Shown here: piece after piece, positions 3,752-12,837 of the stretch
Layout of the letters: every line of letters starts with the position of its first letter
Numbering within the stretch: the stretch's first letter is position 1
Origin: Leptonemataceae bacterium
GTDB taxonomy: Bacteria; Spirochaetota; Leptospiria; Leptospirales; Leptonemataceae
Assembly (NCBI GenBank): GCA_965227295.1
Contig: OZ245742.1
Coordinates: 1,792,001 to 1,856,000 of the forward strand
DNA: 64,000 nt
Reading direction: 5' to 3'
Program-made: the position numbers and the translations under genes
Notes under the pieces: model-generated
What the model saw: the letters and a program-made list of their open reading frames with translations, nothing else
The model's database searches: none
What the model was told of the DNA's origin: nothing

Positions 3752-5104
3752 ATGCCTTCAGCTAACATTAGCAGCACGGCCGACACACGGCTCTCCCGCG
3801 TCATCGGTGTGCCCGGCGCCGTGCTGCTGGGCCTCGGGTCCATCGTCGGCACCGGCGTTTTTGTCAGCACCGGCATTGCCGCGGGAGTCGCCGGGCCGGC
3901 CGTCGTTCTGGCCGTGATCGTCGGCGGCGTGCTCGCCACGGTCAACGGGCTCTCCAGCGCACAACTGGCGGCGGCGTATCCAATCAGCGGCGGCACGTAC
4001 GAGTACGCGCGCCGGGTCTTTCCTGAACGTGCGAATCTCGCGTTTACGGCCGGCATCGTGTTCTTGCTCGCGAAGTCGGCCTCGGCGGCGACGGCGTCGC
4101 TGGGGTTCGCCGGTTATTTGCTGCATCTCGCCGGTGTGCCCGGCGCCGCGGAGCGTGTGATCGTGGCGGTGCTCATTACGCTCACAGTCACGGCCGTGGT
4201 TGCCGCCGGTTTGCGTCGATCGAATCGCACGAATGCGGTGCTGCTTGGCGTGACGCTCATTGCGCTGACCGTGTTTGTGGTCGGCATGCTTCCCGCCGGG
4301 ATCAGGAACGGCACCGCGAACCTGACGCCCATGTGGGACAACGGCGACACCTGGACGAACCTGCGGGCGTTCTGTGAAGCGTCGGCGCTGATGTTCGTCG
4401 CGTACACCGGCTACGGCCGGGTGGCCACGCTCGGTGAAGAGATCCGCGATCCGGCAACTAACATTCCACGAGCAGTAGTTAGCACGTTGATCATTACGTC
4501 GCTGCTGTACACCTTCGTTACCGTCGCCGCGGTGGCTGCCGCCGGGGCCGCGGAGTTCGCCGCGTCTACCACGGGCAATGCCGCGCCGCTGGAGATCCTG
4601 GCGCGGCGCTTGGCTCCACCGGAATTCGCTCCGCTTACGGCCGGTATCATTGCGGTGGGTGCCGTAAGTGCTCTGGCCGGTGTGTTGTTGAACCTGGTGC
4701 TCGGTTTATCGCGAGTGTTGTTGGGCATGGCGCGGCGGGGTGACATGCCCGGTGCTCTCGCGCAACTCAGCGACGACTCCCGGGGCGAGGCTCAGCCCCA
4801 TCGTGCGGTGTGGGCCGTCGGTGTGTTCATAGCGGGTCTGACGCTGGCCGGCGACGTGAAACTTACCTGGTCCTTCAGCGCCTTCACCGTGCTGGTGTAC
4901 TACGCGATTACGAACCTGGCGGCGTTGTTTCTTCCGCAAGATGCGCGGCGGTATCCGCGTTTCGTGAGTGCTTTCGGTTTGATCGTTTGCCTGGGGTTGG
5001 CCGCCTTCGTGGACTGGCGCATGATGGCGGCCGGCGCGGGCGTACTGGTGGCGGCCCTTATGTTCCGTTCGGTGTTTGTTAGAGGCGGAGCATCTCCTCG
5101 ATGA
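3752..5104 (+). CDS. APC-family amino acid permease
   Basis: GSIVGTGVF, SGGTYEY, FVAYTGY...LGEEIRDP..NIPRA; multiple transmembrane segments. Confidence 0.92.
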   Translation: MPSANISSTADTRLSRVIGVPGAVLLGLGSIVGTGVFVSTGIAAGVAGPAVVLAVIVGGVLATVNGLSSAQLAAAYPISGGTYEYARRVFPERANLAFTAGIVFLLAKSASAATASLGFAGYLLHLAGVPGAAERVIVAVLITLTVTAVVAAGLRRSNRTNAVLLGVTLIALTVFVVGMLPAGIRNGTANLTPMWDNGDTWTNLRAFCEASALMFVAYTGYGRVATLGEEIRDPATNIPRAVVSTLIITSLLYTFVTVAAVAAAGAAEFAASTTGNAAPLEILARRLAPPEFAPLTAGIIAVGAVSALAGVLLNLVLGLSRVLLGMARRGDMPGALAQLSDDSRGEAQPHRAVWAVGVFIAGLTLAGDVKLTWSFSAFTVLVYYAITNLAALFLPQDARRYPRFVSAFGLIVCLGLAAFVDWRMMAAGAGVLVAALMFRSVFVRGGASPR

Positions 5105-6083
5105 TCGGGCCGTGGTCCTCGAAGAATTCCTCGGCATAGAGCGCCGTGTCGGCCAGATCGATCCACTCGCCTTTCGTTTGTTTGATTTCCCAGTGATCCG
5201 GCACGTCGAAGCGAAAGACGTGCGTTAAGCGCCGCCCGGCCAGGCTGCGCTTCGGATCGTCGAAGAAACGTTGCGCGCGGATCCAGTCGTCTTTGACGAT
5301 CATGCCGCCCTTCTCGAAGGCCGAACGAACCGCGGCGTGAACCAGGGTTTCGTCGGCGCGTACAAAAGAACCCGGTAGCGCACGCAGGCCGGCGCCCAGG
5401 TCCGTGTTCTTGCGTTTGATGGTGAGGACCTTGCCCGGCCGGGTAATGACGGCGTCCACGGTCACCTGCACCGGGGCGTGTTTGAGTTTCGCAATGCGCT
5501 CCTGTTCTTTTTCGATGTAGCGAAACTCGCGGACCAGGCGCTTGTGTTCGTCCGAGTGCAGCCAGTTTTTCGCCAGATAGTTTTTCACGCCGGGGGGCAG
5601 CGGTTCGGGAATCTCGCCGTCGGCGAACAGCGCCCGACGAACCGCCGTGCCGTCCACGCCGCCTTCCTGCTCGCCGGCATCGACGAACTTCCATTCCGGG
5701 AACAGCTTTAAGTAGTACGTGCTCTCGTCTTTATCGTGGCCGAAAAGCGTCACGGAGTCGCCGCGGTTCACGTGCCGGCTTAACTTCAGTTTCAGTTCTT
5801 TTAACCAGGCGTTGTCGTCGTAGGGATGATCCAGGACGGATTCCCAGACAATGCGCCCGCCGCTTTCCAGGGCGTCGTCAAAGAGGGCCGAGAGCATGGC
5901 CACACGATCGTGCACGCGCCAGGGATTCCGTACGGTAGGCGCGCAGGCCGCCGAGCCGATGACCACGATGGTGAGCTCGGCCTTCTGCATGGCCCGCCGG
6001 ATCAGCGCCTCATGGCCGCGGTGGAACGGCTGGAAGCGGCCGATGACCACGGTGACGTTTCGAGGAGGCGTCTTAGTTTTCAT
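5079..6083 (-). CDS. NadM-Nudix type bifunctional NMN adenylyltransferase; Nudix box degenerate
   Basis: IGRFQPFHRGH (HxGH), GHDKDESTYYLKLFPEW, C-terminal FFEDH; start assumed at MKTKT (6083). Confidence 0.9.
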   Translation of the reverse strand: MKTKTPPRNVTVVIGRFQPFHRGHEALIRRAMQKAELTIVVIGSAACAPTVRNPWRVHDRVAMLSALFDDALESGGRIVWESVLDHPYDDNAWLKELKLKLSRHVNRGDSVTLFGHDKDESTYYLKLFPEWKFVDAGEQEGGVDGTAVRRALFADGEIPEPLPPGVKNYLAKNWLHSDEHKRLVREFRYIEKEQERIAKLKHAPVQVTVDAVITRPGKVLTIKRKNTDLGAGLRALPGSFVRADETLVHAAVRSAFEKGGMIVKDDWIRAQRFFDDPKRSLAGRRLTHVFRFDVPDHWEIKQTKGEWIDLADTALYAEEFFEDHGPIIEEMLRL

Positions 6084-6096
6084 TGAGTGTACCTTT

Positions 6097-6133
6097 GAAA
6101 TGAAAGAACCCCGGAGCGACGGCCCCGGGGTTC
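6097..6133 (-). terminator. Terminator-like hairpin between the NAMPT and NMNAT genes
   Basis: Minus strand GAACCCCGG-N10-CCGGGGTTC followed by TTTCATTT. Confidence 0.55.
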
Positions 6134-6139
6134 GAAGAA

Positions 6140-7555
6140 TCAAACCGCAACAGCGATGCGGTGCCGTGCGCGTTTGCGGACGGCATCGAAATCGCGCGCG
6201 TAGTCGGGGAAATCATACGTGGCACGTTCCGCGTCTCCGCGATAGTAGGTCACCCAGCCGTCCGTATTCAGGCCGGCCCCGGGATCCCAGGCGGTTTTTT
6301 CTTTTTGCGTAACCGGCGTTTTCTGAACGTTACGCCACTCGCCGTCCACACGGACACCGTACATCTTCATGCTCCAGCTCATCGTGTCGCGGTTGAGCTT
6401 CTGCAGCAGGCCGCCGCCCATACCCACGACCAGGTTCTGCGGGCTGAAGCCGGCCTCGACCACGGCCCCGTACAACCGACGGATCTTGTCGTAGTCCATG
6501 CCGTCACCCTGAATGACGTTTACGCCGTCGAGGACCTTGTAGCCCTTTGCGTTCGTGTTTACGCCCCAGGTTTGTTCGAGACCGCGCAACGCGTAGAGCA
6601 CCATCTCCACGGGATCGCCGCTGTCCGGCCGGACCACGGGCGTGACGTTGTGTTTGCGGGCGAGCGCCTGGATTTCCGGATCGCCCCAGCCCTCGTCGAC
6701 CATGCGTTTGTAATCGTAGCTGTCGCTGACGAAGGCGAGCAGCGGATTCTCCGGACCGTAGGTTTCGAGCATGTGTTTGAGCGCCGCTTTCTCGGCGGCC
6801 AGGCCTTCGCCCCAGGCCGTCACGGTGCTGTGCTCCGCGGCCGGGATGCTCGCGGCCAGTTCGTCCGGCGCGGCGTTGTAGAGTTCCACGCCGCGACGCA
6901 CGCCTTCCATAGTATCTGTTCCGCGAAAGTTAATGAGATGCGCCAGGCCGCCGTTCGCGGCACTCAGTCCGCTGGTGGCACCGCGGGCGCCGAAGTCGTG
7001 CAGACGATAGTCCAGCGTCCAGTAGTCATCCGCCTCGACCGTATCCGCGTACAGATCTTCCAGAAACGCGCGCACGTTGCGGCTGTTCGTCGCCACGGTG
7101 CTCCCGTACCATACGTCGCGCTGTAGCGCCGTTTCGAGGAAACCCGGCAAGAACAGAAAGTCCGGGCGCAGGCACTCAACAATCAACAGCGGCTCGTTGT
7201 AGCGATCCGTGACGGTTCCCTCGGGAACGCCGTAGATGTTGATCGGATACTTATAGTTTTTCCCGTGCAGTTCGACGAGATTTTCGAACGGCGCAAAGGG
7301 AAACGGATACGGCGTGCCGCCGACGTTGAAGTGATCCCAGATGGCCCGGGCTTCTTGAATGTCGTCGCGGGTGAGCACGTTATCCAGGTAGTCGTGGATG
7401 AACGCGGTTACGCCGAAGAAGAGGAACTCCCGTAGTTCGGGAGCGATGGGTTTGCGCGGTGCCAGGTAGTATCGTGCGGCATCGGCATTCGGTGGGAAGA
7501 GACGGCTGTGGCTGCCCTTGTAGGCGTCCGTCGCCAACAAAAGATTCGGTTTCAT
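6140..7555 (-). CDS. nadV: Nicotinamide phosphoribosyltransferase (NAMPT)
   Basis: TDAYKGSH, LHDFGARG, SIPAAEHST, SDSYD, VVRPDSGDP, IQGDG, GMGGGLLQK.NRDT. Confidence 0.92.
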   Translation of the reverse strand: MKPNLLLATDAYKGSHSRLFPPNADAARYYLAPRKPIAPELREFLFFGVTAFIHDYLDNVLTRDDIQEARAIWDHFNVGGTPYPFPFAPFENLVELHGKNYKYPINIYGVPEGTVTDRYNEPLLIVECLRPDFLFLPGFLETALQRDVWYGSTVATNSRNVRAFLEDLYADTVEADDYWTLDYRLHDFGARGATSGLSAANGGLAHLINFRGTDTMEGVRRGVELYNAAPDELAASIPAAEHSTVTAWGEGLAAEKAALKHMLETYGPENPLLAFVSDSYDYKRMVDEGWGDPEIQALARKHNVTPVVRPDSGDPVEMVLYALRGLEQTWGVNTNAKGYKVLDGVNVIQGDGMDYDKIRRLYGAVVEAGFSPQNLVVGMGGGLLQKLNRDTMSWSMKMYGVRVDGEWRNVQKTPVTQKEKTAWDPGAGLNTDGWVTYYRGDAERATYDFPDYARDFDAVRKRARHRIAVAV

Positions 7556-7773: not shown

Positions 7774-8766
7774 TCAGGTCCTCCGGGAGGACTCGCTCAC
7801 GTGTCTTTCGATTGCCAGCGCATCCACCGATCCCAATCCCGCCAGCGGCACGCGTACATCTTCGTCGTCGGACGTACGGATCATTAAGAGCGGCAGTCCG
7901 CCGTAGGCATCGAAGCTGTACGAAACGTTCTGAATCTCCGCGCGCGTAATCTCGCCCACGGCATACAACGCCCCGTCCTGCTCGCGCCGCCCGAAAGACA
8001 GCTCCTCGCGGCCGAGCAGTAACATGCGCTCCTTGAATGTTAACGAGAAAGCGGCATACACCAGAAAAGCGGCGAACAGAATGCCCGGCGTCCAGAAGTA
8101 GGGCGCCGTGGCTTCGAATTCCAGCAACGCCCCGGCCGCGATGGAGGCTATGCCCAGAAACAACAGCACGATCCAGGTCAGCGCGCGATTCGAAATGCGG
8201 TCGCGCCAGATCAACACCGTCTCGCCTTCGGATGTCCGCTCCGTTTTATACGAAGGCTCCGCAGAAACCGGCTCGGCCGGCCCCGCGTTTTCGTGCGCGA
8301 ACGCCTGCAAGCGTTCCGCCATGCCTTCGGCCAGGCCGCGCCGATTGCACTGAATCACGTCGAACAATGCGCCGTTTTTGCGCTTCAGCGCCACCATGAC
8401 CCGCCCGCGACCGCGAAAGCGCAGCGACGTCGTTTCGATCTCTGCGAAGGGAACCGCGGCGGCCGGCTCATTGTCCCCGGCGCGCACGTAAATGTTCACG
8501 CGCTTTTGCGCGGCATCGAAGACGATCTTTGCGGGGAGCAGACTCATCTGCACGCGATGCAACATGGCTCCGCCGGCGAACACCAGGCCGAGGCCTGTCA
8601 GACTGAGCGTGAGCGACAGACTGCGCTCGAAGTAGAGATGTGCCACCGGTCCGCCGGCAATCGCCGCGAGGGCGGAGGCGAGCAGGACGTAGAAGAACAG
8701 TGAGAGCGATCGATCGCGCGTGAAGATGATGTGTTCGTCGGTGTTGTGGTGTAAGCTGAAGGACAT
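7774..8766 (-). CDS. Hypothetical membrane protein
   Basis: 330-aa ORF with two pairs of hydrophobic helices, each followed by a soluble segment. Confidence 0.7.
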   Translation of the reverse strand: MSFSLHHNTDEHIIFTRDRSLSLFFYVLLASALAAIAGGPVAHLYFERSLSLTLSLTGLGLVFAGGAMLHRVQMSLLPAKIVFDAAQKRVNIYVRAGDNEPAAAVPFAEIETTSLRFRGRGRVMVALKRKNGALFDVIQCNRRGLAEGMAERLQAFAHENAGPAEPVSAEPSYKTERTSEGETVLIWRDRISNRALTWIVLLFLGIASIAAGALLEFEATAPYFWTPGILFAAFLVYAAFSLTFKERMLLLGREELSFGRREQDGALYAVGEITRAEIQNVSYSFDAYGGLPLLMIRTSDDEDVRVPLAGLGSVDALAIERHVSESSRRT

Positions 8767-9498: not shown

Positions 9499-10110
9499 TT
9501 ACTGCTTCTTCCCCGGCACCGGCCAGCCCAGACGTTCCAGGACTAACTTAATATCGTGCCACACTTCGCGTTTCGCGGAATTGCCCGAGCTTTCCTGGCG
9601 CAGCACGTAACTGGGATGGAACGTGGGCATCACCGGAATGCCGCGAAACTCGGCCCACCTGCCGCGCATACGCGTGATGCCCGTATGTGTATCGAGAAGG
9701 AACTTCGTCGACGGGCCGCCGAGGGTAATGATGACCTTCGGTTGAATGAGATCGATCTGCCGCAAAAGATACGGTGAGCACGCGTCCGTTTCGTCCGTCT
9801 CCGGCGGTCGGTCGCGCTGAAACTTGAGGTCCACGGTGGGCCGGCACTTGACGATGTTTGCGATGTAGACCTCGGTGCGCGGAACGCCCATGCCCTTTTC
9901 AATGATGTCCGTGAGCAACTGTCCGGCGCGCCCGACGAACGGTCGGCCGCTGAGATCTTCCTGTTTGCCCGGGCCTTCGCCGATGAACATGACCTCGGCT
10001 TGCGGATTGCCCTCGCCGAAGACGGTGCGCGTACGGGTGGTTGCGAGGCGACACGACTCGCAGGTACTCACCACACGTTCCAGATTACGCAGTTCTTCGG
10101 CGGCGTTCAT
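9499..10110 (-). CDS. Uracil-DNA glycosylase, family 4 (Fe-S type)
   Basis: [34 protein letters not shown]. Confidence 0.95.
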
Positions 10111-10127: not shown

Positions 10128-12125
10128 TCAGGCATCGGTGAAGCCGATGAAGTCGCGATAGATCTTAACCGCTTCGCCGAGTTCGTTTACGAGATGGACC
10201 GACTGCAACAGCTTCGGTGCCACCATGCCTTTCTCCGCCGCGGATTTGAGAAAGTCGAGTATGGGCCGCCAGTAATCGGCGTCCATAAAAATATACGGCG
10301 CGTTGTGATGTACACCTAACTTGAGATTGCACAACTCTATGCCCACTTCTTCCAGGGTGCCCACTCCGCCCGGAAAAAACACGGGAAATCGCGCAATCGA
10401 GAAGTTCTTCTGGCGAATGTGTCGGCAGTACTCGTCGAAGAACATGAATATGTTCGAGTGCTGGTTCAGCTTTTGCGGCTTCTCGGCGAAGTCCGTGGAG
10501 AGCGAGCTGCTGGCCGAAAGGATGCCGGCTTCCAGGGCGGAGCGGTTGATCACTTCCATTAACTTCGGTCCGCCGCCGGTTACCACGCCGATTTCGCCGA
10601 AGAGTTCGCGCAGATCGTTAAAGAATTCCGGGAGCTGTTCTTCGAGGCCGCCGGGCACGTTCGCCGAACTGCCGTAACAGGCGAAGAACGTCGCGGCGTG
10701 AAAGCGCTGGGCCAGGTCCTCGTGCATGAAGAATCCGCAATCGTCCCGCATGAAGTAGTGCGCCGGTTCCGCGTCCTGGCGCAACCAAACGGGTTGGATG
10801 CCCAGATGATGAAAGTATTTCAGGCGCGAGACGTCGAATTCGGAGAAGAACGGATCGTTGCGCTGGGACGCTCGTCGGAACAGGATCGCGCGGATGTTGT
10901 CGCGGCAGGTTTCGATCATCGAAGAAATATCCCAGCGGGGAAAGTAGTACGAAAGCAGGAAGCCGCTGGCGCGAATGTAGTCCTTCTGGATTTCTTCGAG
11001 GATGTCGTACTCCGGGCAGTCCGCGGCTTTCATGTCTCCGCGTTCGAAGCTCCGCACGGCGGCGTCGGAGATCGTGGTGTTTTTGATTTCGTCGAGTTTT
11101 TCCAGCTCTTCGGCGTCCACGAGAAAGGCCGAGTGTTTCACGAGTTTGCCGTTGGCCAGGCTGTTGCCCGCGAGCGTTTCGTCCATGCGTTCGGCGAGTT
11201 GCATCTTCGGTGCGAGCAGTTCCGATAATCGAATGGTCGCCGGGATCTGCACCGAGCAGCGCCGCCGTTCCGGGCGATAGATGCCGATGGCCACGCCGTC
11301 GAAGACGATCTCCCGATCGCTTAAGTTAAACACTTCGATCATTTGTTTGGTGTTCTGTCCGTAGCTCAGCGGATCGAACAGCCGCGCGCTGGCGTGGCGG
11401 AGTTCAGGGACGATTTCGTTTTTGTACGTGAGGCCTTCGATGTAGGCGAAGTGTTCGCGCACGCGGAAGAGCGGAAGCTGCGAAAGGATCCAGCCGCGCG
11501 GCGGAATCTTAAGCGGCAGATCGCGGGGAATGCGCTGGCGAAAGAAGTCCAGGTCCTGGCGCGTGCCCTGGGAGAGCAGGTACCGGATTTGATCGCGGTT
11601 CGGCGGATCGTGGCGATGGTACTCGTACTCCACGTGGTCGGCCGGAATGATGATGCTGTGATCCGGTCCCTGGGCGAGTTCACTGACTTCAATTAACGGT
11701 TGGCCGGAGGAGTATACGTTTTGTAGGACCTGTTCGTAGTGCAGGCGCCGGCTGCGCGATAGTACGAACAGTTTTCCGAGGCGTGCCTTTTCGTGACGTT
11801 CCCTTTCGTGGCTGCCGACCACGAAGTCCAGCACGCGCGGGGCGACGCCGTTGTCCTTCGCGTACGAAAGTGTGAGCGTGCATTCCAGGCGATGCGTCGT
11901 ACCCAGCGGTCGTTCCAGGTTCGTCAGCTCACTGTCCAGACCGAGCTGGCAGAGCCGGCTGCGCATGATGAAGTCGGTGGGGTTTTCGTACATCTCGCTC
12001 AAGAATCGCTGCGAGATGTTTTCAAAAACGACAACGGCCTGAAGAGCGTCGCCCTTGTTCGAGACGGCCCAGACAAAACCGTCGTCCGTCATCATATTGT
12101 CGTACGGATAGATGGCGCTGCGCAT
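10128..12125 (-). CDS. Long LOG/SLOG-family protein with large N-terminal extension
   Basis: C-terminal [30 protein letters not shown]; start placed at MRSAIYP because the upstream part of the ORF overlaps vapC. Confidence 0.85.
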
Positions 12126-12181: not shown

Positions 12182-12571
12182 TTAGACTGCGCGGACGCGG
12201 TACTTCTTGAACGCGGGGTCCGCGGTAATCAGGCGCAGTTTTTCCGAGAGCGCCTGCGCCGCGAGCAAACGATCGAACGGATCGCGGTGATGATTCGGAA
12301 GTTCGCCCAGTCGCCACAGATGTTCGATGCGCACGGGAAGGTAGCCGGCCCGTAGACCCAACATGCCGCGTTCCACGGCGCTCTTCAGTCCGTTTGTAAA
12401 CTGCAGGCGCCCGAGGCCGGTCTTGATGACCAGTTCCCACAGCGAGACGTGGCTGAAGTACAGCAGGGCTTCCGGATTCTCCAGGATTTTGCGCTGTTTT
12501 GCCGAAAGCCGGTCCGGGTCCTGCAAGGCCCACAGGAAGATGTGCGTATCGAGGAGATACTGCGTCTCCAT
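12182..12571 (-). CDS. vapC: PIN-domain toxin (VapC family)
   Basis: LLDTHIFLW, SLWEL, HRDPFDRLL.AQA, LITAD. Confidence 0.93.
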   Translation of the reverse strand: METQYLLDTHIFLWALQDPDRLSAKQRKILENPEALLYFSHVSLWELVIKTGLGRLQFTNGLKSAVERGMLGLRAGYLPVRIEHLWRLGELPNHHRDPFDRLLAAQALSEKLRLITADPAFKKYRVRAV

Positions 12572-12576
12572 GGCGG

Positions 12577-12837
12577 TCAGCCCTTGCCCGAAGGTCCGAA
12601 AGCGTCCAGAATGTCGTCCGGCAGCGGGGCGTCGAAATCCGGGCTCACCTGGATTTCATCTTTTAAGAAGCCCAGGGACCGGCGTTTGTCGAAGGAGTCC
12701 GTTAAAACGGGGACCAGCCGGACCAGGGGCCGCCCGGCCTTCGCGATGACGATGTTCTCCCCGTCCAGAGCGCGCTGGATGAGCCGCGAGAGATGCGTCT
12801 TGGCATCGTGGATGTTGACGTGGGCGATAGCGACCAT
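12577..12837 (-). CDS. Phd/YefM-family antitoxin
   Basis: VNIHDAKTHLSRLI..A..GE.IVIAKAGRP.VRLVP; directly upstream of the PIN toxin. Confidence 0.93.
   Translation of the reverse strand: MVAIAHVNIHDAKTHLSRLIQRALDGENIVIAKAGRPLVRLVPVLTDSFDKRRSLGFLKDEIQVSPDFDAPLPDDILDAFGPSGKG

Follow-up and report, generated by a model that had tools for sequence, protein, structure and literature searches.

A LOG-family protein of a Leptonemataceae bacterium with a tandem Dcd-like head and a zinc-less dCMP-deaminase-like middle domain

The window analysed here, a 64,000-nt stretch of a Leptonemataceae genome, encodes a 665-aa protein in which a tandem of two Dcd-like folds, a dCMP-deaminase-like fold without zinc ligands and a LOG nucleosidase domain are joined in a single chain, and which is a real, conserved and apparently undescribed three-module variant of LOG/PpnN nucleosidases. 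The gene, its modules and the gene that follows it are arranged as listed below.

10128..12125, minus strand: gene for the 665-aa protein (Dcd-like tandem, zinc-less dCMP-deaminase-like domain, LOG nucleosidase)
11751..12125, minus strand: Dcd-fold repeat 1, residues 1-125 (2r9q superposition and pairwise hhalign)
11940..11963, minus strand: RSRLCQLG, an RSS-type motif within repeat 1, residues 55-62
11250..11750, minus strand: Dcd-fold repeat 2, residues 126-292 (structure matches and pairwise hhalign)
10746..11240, minus strand: dCMP-deaminase (cytidine-deaminase superfamily) fold, residues 296-460 (domain model)
10131..10745, minus strand: LOG/PpnN-type phosphoribohydrolase domain, residues 461-665 (Pfam PF03641 and 5wq3)
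9499..10110, minus strand: uracil-DNA glycosylase (UDG; PF03167, E 6.7e-38), 18 nt downstream of the 665-aa gene

At least 21 close homologues (47-72% identity) have the same length, and the equivalent methionine is the start in most of them, which supports the 665-aa call. An AlphaFold2 model built from 116 sequences (mean pLDDT 91.9, pTM 0.86) was compared structurally against 48,161 chains, whereby three modules were resolved. Residues 4-290 can be placed on the tandem Dcd structure 2r9q in a single superposition (Z 13.7, rmsd 4.4, 244 residues aligned, 13% identity), and Foldseek matched the 665-aa model to 2r9q with an E value of 8.2e-7. Within this head, residues 126-291 form a dUTPase-like beta fold, with matches to trimeric Dcd and dUTPase structures at Z 10-12, such as 3km3 (Z 12.0, rmsd 3.3, 140 aligned), 2qlp from M. 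tuberculosis (Z 11.8, rmsd 2.9, 145 aligned) and 2v9x from E. coli (Z 11.6, rmsd 3.4, 153 aligned). The preliminary description had placed a dUTPase-like domain fused to LOG at 11270-11525, i.e. residues 201-286 of the 665-aa protein, where the peptides that it quoted are indeed present; the AlphaFold model, examined with Foldseek and by structure comparison, bears out such a fold for this part of repeat 2, as well as its fusion to a LOG domain whose catalytic Arg and Glu are retained. The assignment was incomplete, however, since it missed the other, N-terminal Dcd repeat and the third domain at residues 296-460.

Deaminase homology of the head is barely detectable by sequence profiles. Pfam recognised LOG alone in the 665-aa protein, phmmer and hmmsearch against PDB returned matches to LOG only, and neither NCBIfam nor Pfam gave a match to trimeric dCTP deaminase (TIGR02274). 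Dcd, dUTPase and deaminase families were likewise absent among the Pfam families listed for 24 members, and among 25 of the 38 Pfam families listed for 70 members; DCD_N had no matches in the host genome, residues 1-292 gave no usable match in the ESM atlas, and tblastn of the head against plasmids found nothing. Positive results came from pairwise hhalign, in which repeat 1 aligned with Dcd at E 0.0027 and with dUTPases at E 0.0013, beating 20 of 20 column shuffles, and repeat 2 aligned with Dcd at E 0.0005, again beating 20 of 20 shuffles, with probabilities of at most 31% over 20 comparisons made and with a Dcd template of two sequences. Alignment of residues 1-295 as a whole with tandem Dcd stayed at shuffle level (probability 0.4%).

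The Dcd site residues are divided between the two repeats. Repeat 1 carries motif II (R55, S56, Q60 and G62) and the motif IV position (G117-K118-L119), and its D15, placed by eye only, is probably motif I; repeat 2 carries H244, A247, D251, P252 and E264, and has no motif II. The RSS motif, initially described as absent, is indeed missing from repeat 2, but is found in repeat 1 as R55-S56-R57-L-C-Q60-L-G62. By pairwise profile alignment, with E. coli numbering taken from PDB sequences, S56, G62, H244, A247, D251 and E264 are equivalent to Ser111, Gly117, His121, Ala124, Asp128 and Glu138 of E. coli Dcd, for which His121 and Glu138 mutants exist as PDB entry titles. Conservation was assessed in 104 non-redundant homologues, obtained from 197 full-length sequences with a 75% identity filter. 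While identities span 16-56%, conservation within the first 295 positions is highest at six of them, namely G62 (94%), S56 (92%), H244 (90%), G117 (89%), E264 (86%) and D15 (85%), with A247 conserved in 84%, and all of the top conserved positions except D15 align with Dcd site residues.

The same partition is seen in tandem Dcd proteins, where 12 of 12 sequences, as well as 2r9q, have KSSxxR in repeat 1 only and H-x-A-x-x-x-D-P plus Glu in repeat 2. These 12 alphaproteobacterial-type sequences (PRK07559; L110-L121) carry HYAGFFDPGF in repeat 2 only, a split which implies one composite site per chain. In trimeric proteins, motif III is contributed by one subunit, with motifs I, II and IV coming from the adjacent one (PMC12524310). 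From the superposition on 2r9q, for which our literature search found no paper, we infer that the two half-sites in the 665-aa protein would be in contact, and that the tandem pair would form one composite site with the RS motif supplied by repeat 1.

Several residues expected at this site are altered. Position 60, equivalent to Arg115 of E. coli Dcd, is Gln in the 665-aa protein and throughout its clade (22 of 22 members); family-wide, 50 of the 104 homologues have Gln and 45 have Arg at this position, and each state is spread over several clades in the tree. Reportedly, in the work of Thymark et al. from 2008, R115Q inactivates E. coli Dcd. S56, H244 and E264 are jointly kept in 88 of the 104, and S, R, H and E, all four, in 42; next to the variable position 60, the constancy of the former three residues looks as though binding were conserved and catalysis dispensable. 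The aromatic residue three positions after the Asp (Trp131 in E. coli Dcd, Phe in 2r9q) is Ser254, and is non-aromatic, by eye, in nearly all homologues; in dUTPases, a Tyr at motif III stacks on the deoxyribose (PMC1802613). At the motif IV position, 95 of the 104 homologues have Lys or Arg (K118 in the 665-aa protein), and E. coli Dcd has Ala, not Gln. A YQxQ-type lid segment after repeat 2 is absent, as judged by eye against tandem Dcd sequences. Of the marks of trimeric dUTPases (PF00692), whose motif roles are described (PMC1802613), the motif IV Gln is replaced by K118 and the motif III aromatic by S254, and motif V is missing after repeat 2. The view that the domain is catalytically altered thus stands as probable, although the cause would be Gln60, Ser254 and the missing lid motif, and not the loss of RSS. 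Judged by their defining residues, the 665-aa protein is placed outside the Dcd, dUTPase and dCMP deaminase families. In four members (P0227, P0253, P0259 and P0247) the head His/Glu motif is lost, and in two (P0124 and P0222) the LOG Arg or Glu is lost, so that decay has gone further in some parts of the family.

The middle module is a dCMP-deaminase fold. In the full-length model, residues 306-453 match dCMP deaminases; when residues 296-460 were folded alone (pLDDT 81.5), the best 24 structure matches were all deaminase-fold proteins, including 7fh4 (Z 9.0, rmsd 3.6, 127/140 aligned), 2w4l (Z 8.5) and 2hvv (Z 8.3). Foldseek agrees weakly (best E 0.0096), and pairwise hhalign against dCMP deaminase gave E 0.0058, beating 20 of 20 shuffles, while a search of residues 293-470 in the ESM atlas returned DUF4478 at a score of 0.76, which is chance level. 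The zinc ligands of T4 dCMP deaminase are His, Cys and Cys (PMC12697855); here the zinc motif is decayed, with C370-P-E372 in place of HxE and F395-P396-R-W-D in place of P-C-x-x-C, and CxxC occurs in only one of the 104 homologue middle domains. P396, the Pro preceding the cysteine pair, is kept in 100 of 104 and is the sole site residue of this domain above 90%; the domain showed no conserved ligand site.

The C-terminal module, on the other hand, retains its catalytic residues. Pfam PF03641 (LOG) matches residues 523-654 (E 1.8e-13, 51.3 bits versus a cut-off of 27), although the protein falls under the TIGR00730 cut-off (63.7 versus 96.35 bits), and the domain superimposes on the type-II LOG 5wq3 (Z 20.2, rmsd 3.5, 199 aligned). 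The PGGVGTLEE motif occupies residues 585-593 and the catalytic Arg is R571; R571 is present in 102 and E593 in 103 of 104 homologues. Arg and Glu are catalytic in LOG and PpnN (PMC4979012; bioRxiv 2025.04.13.648610), where they hold the ribose 2'- and 3'-OH. At the position of Lys100 in type I LOG, 102 of the 104 homologues have Gln (Q572), which makes the base pocket unusual. By the tests run, the 665-aa protein classifies as a LOG member and, with its catalytic residues intact, is a predicted nucleosidase.

A homologue search yielded 143 proteins; among the best 120 of these, 21 are the close relatives at 47-72% identity mentioned above, and a large Opitutales group of about 635 aa shows about 25-30% identity. 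Searching 1.84 billion representatives with a profile brought in further full-length members of 610-890 aa; of 20 clusters looked up, 6 had a name, and the names include Chlamydia psittaci, C. abortus, a Chlamydiales bacterium, Dormibacteraeota, Myxococcota and Peregrinibacteria as full-length carriers; genome loci extend the carriers to KSB1, Ignavibacteriales and two gammaproteobacteria. The nearest named relatives of the 665-aa protein are Leptospirales, and of 61 related genomes, three, all of its own genus, have the full-length gene, while the other 48 with a match show LOG-only hits. Its GC3 of 0.76 equals that of its neighbours, and there is thus no sign of recent arrival; a promoter and terminator scan of the gene stayed at chance level. 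A role in phages or in defence, as an anti-phage nucleotide-depletion deaminase, found no support: no full-length viral copy and no phage match were found, 20 of 20 viral loci being LOG-only matches, PADLOC matched none of five family members, and the neighbours are housekeeping genes rather than a defence island.

In the window, a Phd/YefM antitoxin and PIN toxin pair (12182-12837, minus strand) lies 57 nt upstream of the 665-aa gene; two loci from the same genus (L089 and L090) have a sensor kinase at this position, and the pair therefore looks like a local insertion. Further downstream are a 330-aa probable membrane protein without Pfam or PADLOC match (7774-8766, minus strand) and, 2.5 kb away, genes for nicotinamide phosphoribosyltransferase and then a NadM-Nudix-type protein (NAD salvage; 5079-7555, minus strand), a pair that was seen beside none of 82 homologous loci. 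The preliminary description had also tied the protein to the adjacent UDG, which did not hold up: UDG occurs in only 2 of the 82 homologous loci, 5 kb away in one (L054) and 1.3 kb downstream in the same-genus L090, and purine genes recur instead. The flanks of L089 and L090 extend only 1.5 kb; L089 repeats the neighbourhood of L002, in which no UDG was found within 6 kb. The purine gene purD is downstream in 57 of the 77 loci with room for it; in 39 of the 77 it is on the same strand and no more than 300 nt away. All purD-linked loci are titled Verrucomicrobiota, one being binned as an Akkermansia-unrelated "bacterium", so that the link in effect represents one lineage and does not count as independent evidence; guaA directly follows the homologue in a KSB1 locus (L003). 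In Opitutales (L013-L080) the recurring order is family gene, purD, ORF without assignment, low-molecular-weight tyrosine phosphatase and glyA, with aroK upstream.

The host genome has Dcd and dUTPase of its own, found only as free dcd and dut genes. A free Dcd or dUTPase match is found in none of eight Verrucomicrobiota carriers versus 68 of 113 other genomes. Among 101 Opitutales genomes, six carry the fusion, six others a dUTPase-family gene, and 82, including 6 of 6 carriers, a dCMP deaminase-like gene, these last matches being below the curated cut-off of that model; the lineage is thus largely without trimeric dUTPase (6 of 101 sampled genomes match, counting the trimeric family only). 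With Dcd and dUTPase of its own in the host, and dCMP deaminase in all six Opitutales carriers, the fusion is not needed as a source of dUMP. The idea that members with Arg at position 60 replace a missing Dcd or dUTPase was favoured by these counts at phylum level but rejected at order level, as Opitutales are generally without dUTPase and use dCMP deaminase, and the two gammaproteobacterial carriers have both Dcd and dUTPase. The dcd frame of Thiobaca trueperi (G061; L106/L107) is 571 aa long and contains a 385-aa insert which starts with Cys, ends with His-Asn just before the motif II Ser, and looks like an intein.

We predict, with about even confidence, that the 665-aa protein is a housekeeping PpnN-like NMP nucleosidase, the rate of which is set by C/U nucleotides in its N-terminal modules; the folds, the split motifs, their conservation and the intact LOG residues are what this builds on, with ligand binding, gating, substrate and direction all being predicted. 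The overall reaction would convert NMP to base and ribose-5-phosphate. Repeats 1 and 2 would close one pocket, like two neighbouring subunits of trimeric Dcd, reading a C or U base via E264/A247 and phosphates via R55/S56/K118. With Gln60 in place of Arg115 the head would not carry out deamination, and with no sugar-stacking aromatic the pocket may accept CTP/UTP besides dCTP/dUTP/dTTP. The proposal of the preliminary description that the Dcd/dUTPase-like domain could gate the LOG hydrolase stays plausible, with an effector that need not be a deoxynucleotide. The zinc-less dCMP-deaminase domain would either relay the signal or bind a second pyrimidine nucleotide. Both parent folds are those of dCTP/dTTP-regulated enzymes (PMC4827122). 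The LOG domain would then dissipate NMPs, with purine ones being the likelier substrates in view of the purD and guaA neighbours. The whole would work in a PpnN-like manner, pyrimidine-pool sensors having replaced the (p)ppGpp site, with either activation or inhibition as the outcome. More tentatively, and with somewhat less than even confidence, the family may be viewed as an old and widespread nucleotide-pool valve, in which LOG captured both of the unrelated dC-deaminase folds as C/U sensors that gate NMP breakdown, and in which Arg-type members may deaminate the effector and thereby time their own signal.

It is rather unlikely, in our estimate, that the head is itself a working enzyme in a two-step pyrimidine catabolism, deaminating a cytidine nucleotide (CMP, CTP or a deoxy form) so that LOG could cleave UMP to uracil and ribose-5-phosphate. 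Retention of S56, H244, A247, D251 and E264 would be in line with this, as would the split site shared with annotated tandem Dcd; the Lys/Arg at position 118 might replace the lost Arg, and since E. coli Dcd has Ala at motif IV, the change to K118 is compatible with deamination. However, Gln60 is fixed in the 665-aa protein and throughout its clade of 22, the YQxQ-type lid is missing after repeat 2, and Dcd takes triphosphates while LOG takes monophosphates, the intervening step being missing. An active deaminase is likelier for the Arg-type members, and the 42 of 104 homologues with S, R, H and E may be active deaminases. The LOG domain could alternatively be unregulated or differently regulated, the N-terminal modules acting mainly as a scaffold or binding some other ligand, such as a modified or signalling nucleotide, which we find improbable. 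The near-complete loss of site residues from the middle domain, where P396 alone exceeds 90%, the clades without the head H and E motif and the unusual base pocket around Q572 all speak for it, as does a miaA-like ORF at one locus. We take this ORF (L168:111-1031, plus strand; 1.3 kb upstream of a close homologue, and a single case) to be MiaA-like (tRNA isopentenyltransferase) from its appearance by eye. A pure scaffold, however, would have no need of nucleotide-pocket surface residues that are kept at 84-94% across several phyla.

The position of the UDG gene, immediately downstream on the same strand here and nearby in L090, brings to mind a role in uracil sanitising, with the head hydrolysing dUTP and LOG destroying dUMP; D251 is kept, and the Verrucomicrobiota carriers have no free Dcd or dUTPase match. 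We nevertheless regard this as highly improbable: UDG is near so few homologues, neither the motif IV Gln nor motif V is present, the host has its own dUTPase, and the LOG/PpnN Arg and Glu hold the ribose 2'- and 3'-OH. Moreover, Opitutales are generally without trimeric dUTPase (6 of 101 genomes have it) regardless of whether they have the fusion (6 of 101), which indicates that its absence is a lineage trait.

A full-text literature search found no description of the three-module architecture, which the 2015 SLOG survey (Burroughs et al.) could list; PMC5351547 has nothing on this three-module LOG protein, and the LOG types listed in PMC8234997 do not include such an architecture. Among LOG-type nucleosidases, we found a description of allosteric control for PpnN only, and the authors of that work raise the question of how LOG proteins that have no PpnN domains are regulated. 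If true, nucleosidase control by pyrimidine nucleotides would provide a second, independent answer, drawn from repurposed deaminase folds, and would provide a large conserved protein, whose sole annotation in Opitutales, Chlamydia and candidate-phyla bacteria is "LOG family protein", with a function open to testing; it would also mean that one composite site can persist in a tandem Dcd. In addition, C. trachomatis CT387 is, judging by its length, presumably an orthologue of the 665-aa protein. It has been described as a hypothetical protein of 691 aa and a signature protein of Chlamydiales (PMC1403754), and is listed as a potential type III effector (PMC11070183); in a pool of mutants, a transposon had inserted in a C. 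trachomatis "LOG family protein" (PMC8767425).

Comparison with known systems shows that each module has its own closest relatives. The fold of residues 296-460 is that of dCMP deaminases (PBCV-1 7fh4, human 2w4l and S. mutans 2hvv; Z 8.3-9.0), but at 7-10% identity and without the His, Cys, Cys zinc ligands, a loss which resembles that in other catalytically dead members of the deaminase fold. Trimeric Dcd and Dcd:dUTPase (E. coli 1xs1, M. tuberculosis 2qxx/2qlp) have in common with the 665-aa protein the fold of repeat 2 and the site equivalents, whereas the site of the latter is divided over two unequal repeats in a single chain, with Arg115 changed to Gln and Trp131 to Ser254. The closest parallel to the head is the alphaproteobacterial tandem Dcd (PRK07559, Pfam DCD_N, 2r9q), in which repeat 1 likewise holds motif II and repeat 2 holds H/A/DP/E, an arrangement whose implied single composite site is the mirror image of herpesvirus monomeric dUTPases; it differs by the 13% identity, the absence of an HMM or profile match, Gln for the motif II Arg, the missing C-terminal YQxQ lid, and the fusion of the 665-aa head to two further domains. 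The C-terminal domain is closest to type-II LOG proteins (C. glutamicum 5wq3, S. coelicolor 5zi9, T. thermophilus TT1465 1wek and N. meningitidis YgdH 9us2; Z 19-20, E 1e-16 to 4e-7), to which the 665-aa protein adds 460 N-terminal residues. The functional model here is PpnN (YgdH of E. coli; 6gfl, 6gfm, 9hs1-3), a (p)ppGpp-activated NMP nucleosidase with the same LOG core (Z about 14.7), in which PGGxGTxxE and the catalytic Arg recur, and with extra domains around its nucleosidase core. In PpnN these flanks, which form the (p)ppGpp site, are DUF4478 and DUF3412 (Pfam), while the 665-aa protein has neither of them and no evidence of an alarmone site, and its accessory modules are instead the Dcd-like and dCMP-deaminase-like folds.
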